The notes: a model not told the origin generated them from the sequence alone. DNA of 22,976 bases from a virus (IMGVR_UViG_2563366959_000008), one strand, 5' to 3'. Shown: positions 752 through 1,438, counted from the first letter of the stretch. Numbers and translations: made by a program.

Positions 752-1006
752 TCGATGAATAAACAATACGAACTGGTTGTAAAATGAATATTTCTAACTG
801 AAAAAACGTTCCATGAGGTGAGAAAAGGTCACAGGCAATCAATAACAGGACGTGATGAAAGACCCTTGCATTTGTGCGCTTTCTCTTTAGATAGCAGCAG
901 ATACTGAAAATCTGAGTTGTCGGGGAGTCAGGGATACAGCTGTGCAAGAGTTGGTCATTGTGATTCCATTGAAATCCTGTATGCCATGAAGGGCAGGATT
1001 TTATGG

Positions 1007-1321
1007 CTACCTGAGCTTTGGTGATAGTAAGTTGAAAATTCGCATTTTTTGCTGACATGCGTAACGAGAATCCCATAAGCAGGGAGGACTTAATTCTTCA
1101 TTAACCCATGCGTTGATATTATGTTTCAGCCGTTGAAGCATCAGCGGTGTTAATGTTGTGGTAATAATATCCAGCGTTTTATGTGAGATCTTACCGTAAG
1201 GGTCTGCAAGAATGCTGCTTGTTGCTTCGTTATTATCTGCCATCAGAAGAAGTAACTCTGATTTAACGTTTTCTGTCATTAGTTGTAAAAATCTTCTGCG
1301 CAAACTTTCTTTACTGTTCAT
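1007..1321 (-). CDS. Hypothetical protein in the AT-rich insert between holin and endolysin
   Basis: 104-codon ORF antisense to the lysis operon in a visibly AT-richer segment (752-1438); no recognisable domain and a weak RBS. Confidence 0.3.
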   Translation of the reverse strand: MNSKESLRRRFLQLMTENVKSELLLLMADNNEATSSILADPYGKISHKTLDIITTTLTPLMLQRLKHNINAWVNEELSPPCLWDSRYACQQKMRIFNLLSPKLR

Positions 1322-1438
1322 TTATATGGCTTCATTTGTTGTAATCTGCTGCGTCTCAAGGGATATGTTTATGAGAGCGACCATGAGTGTTGGATTATAT
1401 ACCTAACATATCAAGGGATTAGAAATCGATAAATCCCC

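Follow-up and report, generated by a model that had tools for sequence, protein, structure and literature searches.

Why should a prophage keep a gene on the opposite strand in the middle of its own lysis cassette? The question is raised by IMGVR_UViG_2563366959_000008, a viral stretch of 22,976 nucleotides (hereafter the window) that is the late region of an enterohemorrhagic Escherichia coli (EHEC)-type lambdoid prophage in E. coli. Its gene order is the 3' end of a nanS-p-like SASA esterase gene, an S21-type holin gene (S), a spacer, the endolysin gene R, Rz/Rz1, a PerC-family gene, and the terminase, head and tail genes. The spacer (752-1438) carries an open reading frame (ORF) of 104 codons on the minus strand at 1007-1321, and an original prediction had read the whole segment as a single AT-rich insert bearing either a moron or an antisense control of lysis timing. 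The reading favored here, and in our judgment the probable one, is that the ORF and its upstream region would form an independently acquired moron, expressed from the prophage and selected for its protein product, in a layout comparable to that of phage lambda bor.

S (545-751, plus strand) encodes a class II holin, or pinholin (PF04971, E 1.3e-32; annotated in RefSeq as 'class II holin family protein'), and marks the left edge of a variable slot, while R (1439-1972, plus strand) encodes a phage lysozyme of the signal-arrest-release (SAR) endolysin type (PF00959, E 3.2e-24). The 687 bp between them have 39.2% G+C, as against 53.1% in the holin gene, 53.6% in R and 53.8% in the whole window, which bears out the predicted AT-richness; within the spacer the ORF stands at 38.4% and the region upstream of it at 37.6%. 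Only 5 of 446 sliding windows of equal length are as low in G+C, all of them falling either here or in the moron region that follows Rz at 2.7-2.9 kb. The segment is widely distributed, being 100% identical to prophage DNA of O26:H11 11368, O103:H2 12009 and many other strains, and 631 of 5426 complete E. coli genomes contain it, with identity nearly always 99% or higher and no more than three copies per genome. Counting any allele of the antisense gene, the figure is 677 of 5426.

A protein-coding gene opposite the late operon

The ORF listing for the window contains the predicted minus-strand ORF, with an ATG start and 104 amino acids, and on the pattern of its substitutions it is a protein gene under purifying selection. 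The ratio of nonsynonymous to synonymous substitution rates (dN/dS; Nei-Gojobori method, our own script, a handful of divergent alleles) is 0.13-0.32 in every allele pair with unsaturated dS, including alleles without the YdfR-family neighbor described below. Compared with the alleles at L052 and L054 (related loci are cited by L-number), both of which are in the same pseudogene state as the window, there are 6-7 synonymous against 3-4 non-synonymous differences. The flanking DNA provides a second measure of constraint: in the 'solo' alleles L051, L052 and L054, the ORF has 2.2-3.5% mismatches, the pseudogene 5.5-8.2% and the intergenic DNA upstream of the ORF 7.7-11.1%, so that the ORF is two to three times better conserved than its surroundings (Fisher one-sided p 0.001-0.008). 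Homologs with as little as 49% identity align to the protein over its full 104 residues without a gap, 27 positions being invariant, and length and frame are preserved at 52% identity. Given that conservation among homologs begins at residue 1 and that Met15 is missing from phage-86-type proteins, the true start is at 1321 and not at 1279, the position favored by the Prokaryotic Genome Annotation Pipeline (PGAP), which starts the Sakai counterpart ECs_1097 at Met15 and thereby gives a product of 90 amino acids. Two overlapping ORFs, 714-1076 on the minus strand and 1212-1406 on the plus strand, were also considered as genes and were rejected, as they have no family matches and contain stops in related alleles.

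On its predicted structure, the gene product is a small, soluble, basic, five-helix protein. It has a mass of 12.1 kDa and an isoelectric point of 9.3, contains no transmembrane or hydrophobic segment, and is modeled by AlphaFold2 as a five-helix bundle (predicted local distance difference test, pLDDT, 86; predicted template modeling score, pTM, 0.76). Residues 1-102 match positions 57-158 of the 159-position phrog_1853 profile (E 3.5e-47), and the homologs from phage 86 and LC567842 match the same profile. The protein is identical to the EDL933 'unknown protein encoded within prophage CP-933O' and is present on about 1000 contigs; its Sakai counterpart, ECs_1097, lies in Sp4 beside pchA, and homologs at 52-53% identity are encoded by Stx2 phage 86 (orf6; AB255436, BAF34038) and phage Stx2_12E129. 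A profile search of 1.84 billion representative proteins returned 20 matches, of which the eight examined belong to the same small family, and a scan of one genome per species found no family member. The family is tiny and appears limited to prophages of E. coli. The gene is already annotated publicly as encoding a hypothetical protein and is uncharacterised, and literature searches on WP_000138558, ECs1097 and a pinholin with an antisense gene found nothing; the original prediction was right about the gene and overlooked its existing annotation in public genomes.

The S-R junction as a variable slot

The original prediction took S and R to be adjacent in S21-type cassettes. This holds for phage 434, in which S ends and R starts at the same base, but not for many E. 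coli prophages, which carry a YdfR-family gene between the two. The junction is better described as a recombination slot in which at least five arrangements occur: S next to R with nothing between, a short ydfR, a long ydfR-family gene, a long gene with the antisense gene, and a pseudogene with the antisense gene. A YdfR-like gene is present in 103 phage records, many of which, H-19B included, match only over the first ~112 residues and presumably carry the short form. Long YdfR-family genes encoding 185-296 amino acids occupy the slot in L088-L096, with R following after 36 bp and no antisense gene. At other loci a long YdfR-family gene and the antisense ORF stand tail-to-tail, their stops 8-12 bp apart or overlapping, and in this intact-cassette layout a gene of 570-1150 bp separates the ORF from the holin gene. 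Phage 86 is of this type: its sense gene orf5 (268 amino acids), between holin and ORF, is a member of PHROG 1085 with a DUF1327/YdfR domain (PF07041, E 4e-45) at its N-terminus. The window combines a YdfR-family pseudogene with the antisense ORF. A sixth variant (L055, L101 and L102) has a different small holin, then the ORF, then R, and no YdfR-family gene.

Several features of these loci are of interest in their own right. L055, L101 and L102 (E. coli GF4, NZ_CP172217.1, 933424-933845) have an ORF allele 80% identical to that of the window and an upstream gene for a 90-residue holin-like protein that has sub-threshold matches to HP1/P21 holins; the L102-type ORF has lost its stop codon (125 amino acids) and is marked as a pseudogene by PGAP. 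In Sakai Sp4 (L100, NC_002695.2 1182130-1189826) the holin-ECs_1097-endolysin-Rz-pchA cassette is inverted relative to the Q/nanS-p side and bracketed by IS629 and ISEc8 copies, and EDL933 has the same ISEc8 neighborhood. In L061 (IMGVR_UViG_2534681673_000010) the YdfR-family gene is split into pieces of 103 and 191 amino acids and the ORF has 115 amino acids with an altered C-terminus; both genes look degenerate, so that the cassette can evidently decay as a whole. The long YdfR-family proteins are modular (alignment A3, P0036-P0152), with an optional DUF1327 N-terminal domain, a coiled coil, a variable middle, and a strongly conserved C-terminal domain of ~110 residues (…GRCMGYLQVAAEIEALASGAD…PPFKK…YLKGRI) that has no Pfam model. 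An AlphaFold2 model of a YdfR-family partner reaches pLDDT 51, with only the DUF1327 domain confident and the C-terminal domain below 50.

Throughout this variation the ORF keeps one position. It is always antisense and immediately upstream of R, in 79 IMG/VR loci as well as in L002-L007, L102 and L103, down to 52% identity, and the distance from ORF to R is 117-160 bp in all examined loci whose contig reaches R. The homology and conservation check that had been proposed is thereby answered in favor of the gene, which is retained antisense in the same slot at 52-80% identity in related prophages. An informative pair is L064, which has the ORF, and L091, which does not. The C-termini of their YdfR-family proteins are near-identical (as are those of L088 and L094, likewise without the ORF and with 36 bp to R), and so are the 5' ends of R; the two loci differ by an indel of ~405 bp that contains the ORF and one of ~35 bp by the start of R, ~440 bp in total. 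The ATATCC motif that precedes the ATG of R occurs twice in L064. With flanks so nearly identical, the ORF unit must be a separate acquisition (or loss), and its sole constant neighbor is R.

A decayed late gene beside the ORF

The spacer is consequently not one unit. The reading of a 690-bp insert stands for the part that holds the ORF, but it missed that the remaining ~255 bp (752-1006, plus strand) are, on comparison by tblastn with intact partner proteins, a pseudogene of the YdfR (DUF1327/PHROG 1085) late-gene family with a large internal deletion, stops and a frameshift. Directly after the holin stop, 755-787 reads MNKQYELVVK and then TGA in place of the GGA of relatives; the counterparts are MKKKYELVVKG in phage 86 and MNKQYELVVKGINNYPDK in L060, whose intact YdfR-family version of 385 amino acids has the same N-terminus as the remnant. 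Eight of these ten residues are identical to the intact partners from L002, L003 and L004, and 752-790 shares 97% identity with the beginning of a gene (H64) annotated as 'YdfR family protein'. A degenerate C-terminal domain follows in another frame at 837-959 (39% identity and 61% positives over 41 residues, two in-frame stops), and the terminal 'MKGRI', with the KGRI motif, is still encoded in the third frame at 986-1000. The DUF1327 domain is not intact, since ten codons precede the TGA and the rest is deleted or degenerate, and the PGAP annotations inspected contain no gene call at 752-1006. To judge from its reading frames, a functional YdfR-family protein cannot be made from this segment, which is a pseudogene and not a member of the family.

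The hairpin that had been predicted at 973-1001 was also found, within a base or two, as a core stem of eight base pairs (972-979/994-1001) in a structure spanning 966-1006 just 3' of the ORF stop. It sits inside the former 3' end of the YdfR-family gene and can be considered on either strand. As plus-strand RNA it folds at -16.2 kcal/mol (RNAfold; z -2.9, 1 of 200 shuffles as good) and is followed by UUUUAU; on the minus strand the fold reaches -12.8 kcal/mol (z -1.85, equaled by 9 of 200 shuffles) with no U-tract after it. The structure is a modest one and, for want of that tract, not a canonical terminator of the ORF, and the terminator scan did not report a hairpin at 966-1006.

The ORF unit as a probable moron

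Lambda bor and other morons are reportedly single genes that lie within or next to late operons, have promoters of their own and are expressed from the prophage. The ORF unit fits this description in three respects, namely its presence/absence polymorphism, its deviant composition and its insertion on the opposite strand within a late operon; together with purifying selection and the near-identical flanks between which it is present or absent, these support the moron part of the original prediction. In the sequence of events that we envisage, the slot would first have held a late-operon YdfR-family gene, which in this lineage decayed to the 255-bp pseudogene, and a unit of ~440 bp comprising the opposite-strand gene of 104 codons and its upstream region would then have been acquired between the YdfR-family gene and R. 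Transcription of the ORF probably begins at a sigma-70 promoter of its own within the 117-bp divergent region, and the gene would be active in the prophage, when the late operon is silent. Its product may act by binding a component of host or phage, to the advantage of the lysogen or the prophage. During lytic growth, Q-modified late transcription would read through the unit and silence it by convergent transcription, and any antisense effect on the holin message would be a by-product at most.

The divergent region (1322-1438) was inspected by eye and in an alignment of nine alleles for minus-strand signals. Candidate promoter P1 has a -35 element TTTATC (1433-1428), a 17-bp spacer and a -10 element TATGTT (1410-1405), and falls within blocks conserved across the nine aligned alleles; all nine share the conserved GGATTTAT and GGATATGTTA blocks. 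Candidate P2 has a perfect -10 element, TATAAT (1399-1394), which the window, L052, L056/L058 and L102 types share and L004 replaces by TACAAT. Translation of the ORF may have its own arrangement. A mini-ORF of five codons (MKPYK*, 1318-1335, minus strand) ends in a TGA that overlaps the ATG of the ORF as ATGA, and its length and overlap, though not its residues, are kept in five lineages, the variants being MRPYK (L052), MRCYE (L004), MRLYK (L056/L058) and MRLQK (L102). As the ORF of the window allele has no Shine-Dalgarno sequence, it is possible that the mini-ORF couples its translation; phage-86-type alleles have a GAGGA Shine-Dalgarno sequence instead and no mini-ORF. In the phage-86-type alleles L002, L003, L063 and L065, a GC-rich hairpin followed by TTTT(T/A) lies on the minus strand between the R start and the Shine-Dalgarno sequence; it is terminator-like, could be an attenuator or an insulator, and is missing from the window-type allele.

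Several observations weigh against this reading. The consensus promoter scan reported no promoter in 1322-1438, and the -35 element of P2 is poor. The window allele has the lack of a Shine-Dalgarno sequence just mentioned, and neither the terminator scan nor RNAfold indicates a canonical terminator 3' of the ORF. Searches of Pfam, NCBIfam and PADLOC with the ORF product gave no match, a PDB sequence search found only de novo designed proteins and no sequence relative with a solved structure, and a fold search with the five-helix model gave no informative match; the homology and structure check that had been proposed therefore ends in PHROG 1853 membership and a confident helical model, with no match that informs on function. 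Since most copies are at least 99% identical, intactness alone says little, and the small allele sample behind the dN/dS values must be counted here as well.

Alternative explanations

The alternative that survives best, although unlikely, is that the unit works as RNA: an antisense transcript complementary to the YdfR-family and holin messages, or transcriptional interference by collision with leaky read-through from pR', would tune or safeguard lysis and the protein would be secondary. The geometry invites this reading. The ORF and S are oriented convergently, the stretch from the ORF stop (1007) to the end of the holin gene (751) has no canonical terminator on the minus strand, and in intact cassettes the stops lie so close together, or overlap, that transcript 3' ends must overlap. 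Further upstream, hairpins with upstream A-runs at 106-140 and 254-290, identified by terminator scan and RNAfold as strong intrinsic terminators on the minus strand, would end it upstream of S. In the original prediction a transcript of the ORF was to run toward the inverted repeats at 106-288. Read as terminators, these would halt antisense transcription that reads through, but they do not belong to the module. Both phage 434, without any insert, and H-19B, with no more than a short ydfR-like gene, have them; the block 98-545 is 95-99% identical to both phages, in which three terminators are annotated, and tblastn of phage records found the antisense ORF in neither. The ancestral layout, moreover, places 570-1150 bp of another gene between the ORF and S. 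Untranslated C-rich, G-poor transcripts are normally terminated by Rho, and the untranslated minus-strand RNA past the ORF is of that type (plus-strand GC skew +0.2). An effect on lysis timing after induction is doubtful too, in that Q-modified polymerase passes obstacles. A cis-antisense RNA would be expected to show no protein constraint, whereas the dN/dS values and the conserved frame and length given above reveal strong purifying selection at the amino-acid level that a role as RNA leaves unexplained; because the protein sequence is under selection, an RNA-only role cannot be the whole story. A search of 1-3500 against Rfam returned only a sub-threshold rimP match at 2052-2127, which is the R-Rz terminator hairpin.

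Distinctly unlikely, in our estimate, is that the protein is a safety factor of the lysis cassette, made in the lysogen to restrain directly the SAR endolysin or the pinholin, whether its own or those of co-resident lambdoid prophages. The invariant linkage to R is the sole hint in its favor. One might extend this to a lysogeny 'safety catch' for SAR-endolysin cassettes, in which the small helical protein, possibly together with convergent transcription, would block leaky lysis arising from its own prophage or from the many co-resident lambdoid prophages of EHEC. Such a catch would explain why the unit is fixed to the 5' end of R and survives decay of its YdfR-family neighbor, although we give it a similarly slim chance.

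Very improbable is the proposal that the ORF encodes a cognate partner (antitoxin, immunity protein or regulator) of the YdfR-family protein and has been orphaned in the window. Three of four divergent allele groups (78%, 64-67% and 52-53% identity) do lie tail-to-tail with an intact YdfR-family/PHROG 1085 gene, and antitoxins are known to persist as orphans once their toxin has gone. Against this, near-identical YdfR-family genes occur without the ORF (L088-L096; L091 compared with L064), the ORF remains under selection where it has no partner, in the window type and, independently, in the L055/L102 type, and PADLOC matches neither gene. ORF alleles that are ~50% identical also have partners that are both ~85% identical to the same reference (L056-L058 compared with L064). 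As divergent ORFs pair with similar partners, the two genes have been shuffled and do not co-evolve. An obligate antitoxin or immunity pairing was therefore rejected, each gene occurring without the other and in shuffled allele combinations.

That the ORF is a non-functional relic, intact only through the youth of its copies, is scarcely credible: 622 of 632 matching records are at least 99% identical, the ORF product matches no known domain, and PGAP calls a truncated version and, in L102, a pseudogene, but dN/dS is 0.13-0.3 over divergences up to saturation, frame and length are kept at 52% identity, and the ORF is significantly more conserved than the adjacent non-coding DNA.

Neighboring features and implications

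Other features of the region bear less directly on the ORF. A plus-strand terminator at 463-499 lies just before the holin gene. The R-Rz gap (1973-2250) is about 280-330 bp long with 43.5% G+C, and related prophages have an antirepressor-like gene there; it contains a strong, bidirectional-looking terminator hairpin at 2062-2094 (15 pairs and a T-run), which accounts for the rimP match. Downstream of Rz/Rz1, a second stretch of low G+C (~2700-3700, 32-40%) carries at 3241-3555 (plus strand) a gene for a 104-residue PerC-family (Pch-like) transcriptional activator (PF06069, E 4e-44), and in Sakai Sp4 the homologous cassette likewise lies beside pchA (ECs_1091).

The implications concern both pathogenesis and annotation. 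The gene is unusually widespread in Shiga-toxigenic and enteropathogenic E. coli and is situated inside the cassette that releases phage and Shiga toxin; if the moron reading is correct, a protein expressed there in the lysogen could influence spontaneous lysis, toxin release or prophage stability. The states of the S-R slot should also be useful for annotating lysis cassettes, in which the PGAP start at Met15 is wrong and one lineage bears a pseudogene call. None of this is surprising for lambdoid mosaicism, and current understanding stands.

Comparison with known systems

The closest relatives of the window gene are orf6 of phage 86, the PHROG 1853 proteins, Sakai ECs_1097 and the EDL933 protein, which are homologous or identical to it, of 104 amino acids, and found in the same slot and the same antisense orientation. 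Phage 86 orf6 differs in being only 53% identical, in its canonical Shine-Dalgarno sequence and terminator-like upstream hairpin, and in having the intact 268-residue orf5 alongside. YdfR of the Qin prophage (DUF1327/PF07041) and the long PHROG 1085 proteins are the usual occupants of the S-R slot and the family to which the remnant at 752-1006 belongs; of that family the window retains ten N-terminal codons and a degenerate C-terminal fragment, and the antisense ORF is unrelated to it in sequence. YdfR itself has been reported to bind RNase E's catalytic domain and to co-purify with RNA (PMC13232886). The S21/R21 cassettes of phage 21, phage 434 and DLP12 have the same pinholin and SAR-endolysin genes and the same terminator-rich upstream region, but S and R abut in phage 434 and are 687 bp apart in the window. 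With lambda bor, finally, the likeness is one of layout: a single small gene by the lysis genes, opposite to the late operon, present or absent among lambdoid relatives and expressed in the lysogen from its own promoter, the last being a presumption in the case of the window gene; in phage 434 a bor/Iss-like gene follows Rz. Lambda bor encodes an outer-membrane lipoprotein with a role in serum resistance and lies after Rz, whereas the window gene encodes a predicted cytoplasmic helical protein, lies between S and R, and has candidate promoters but no canonical terminator.
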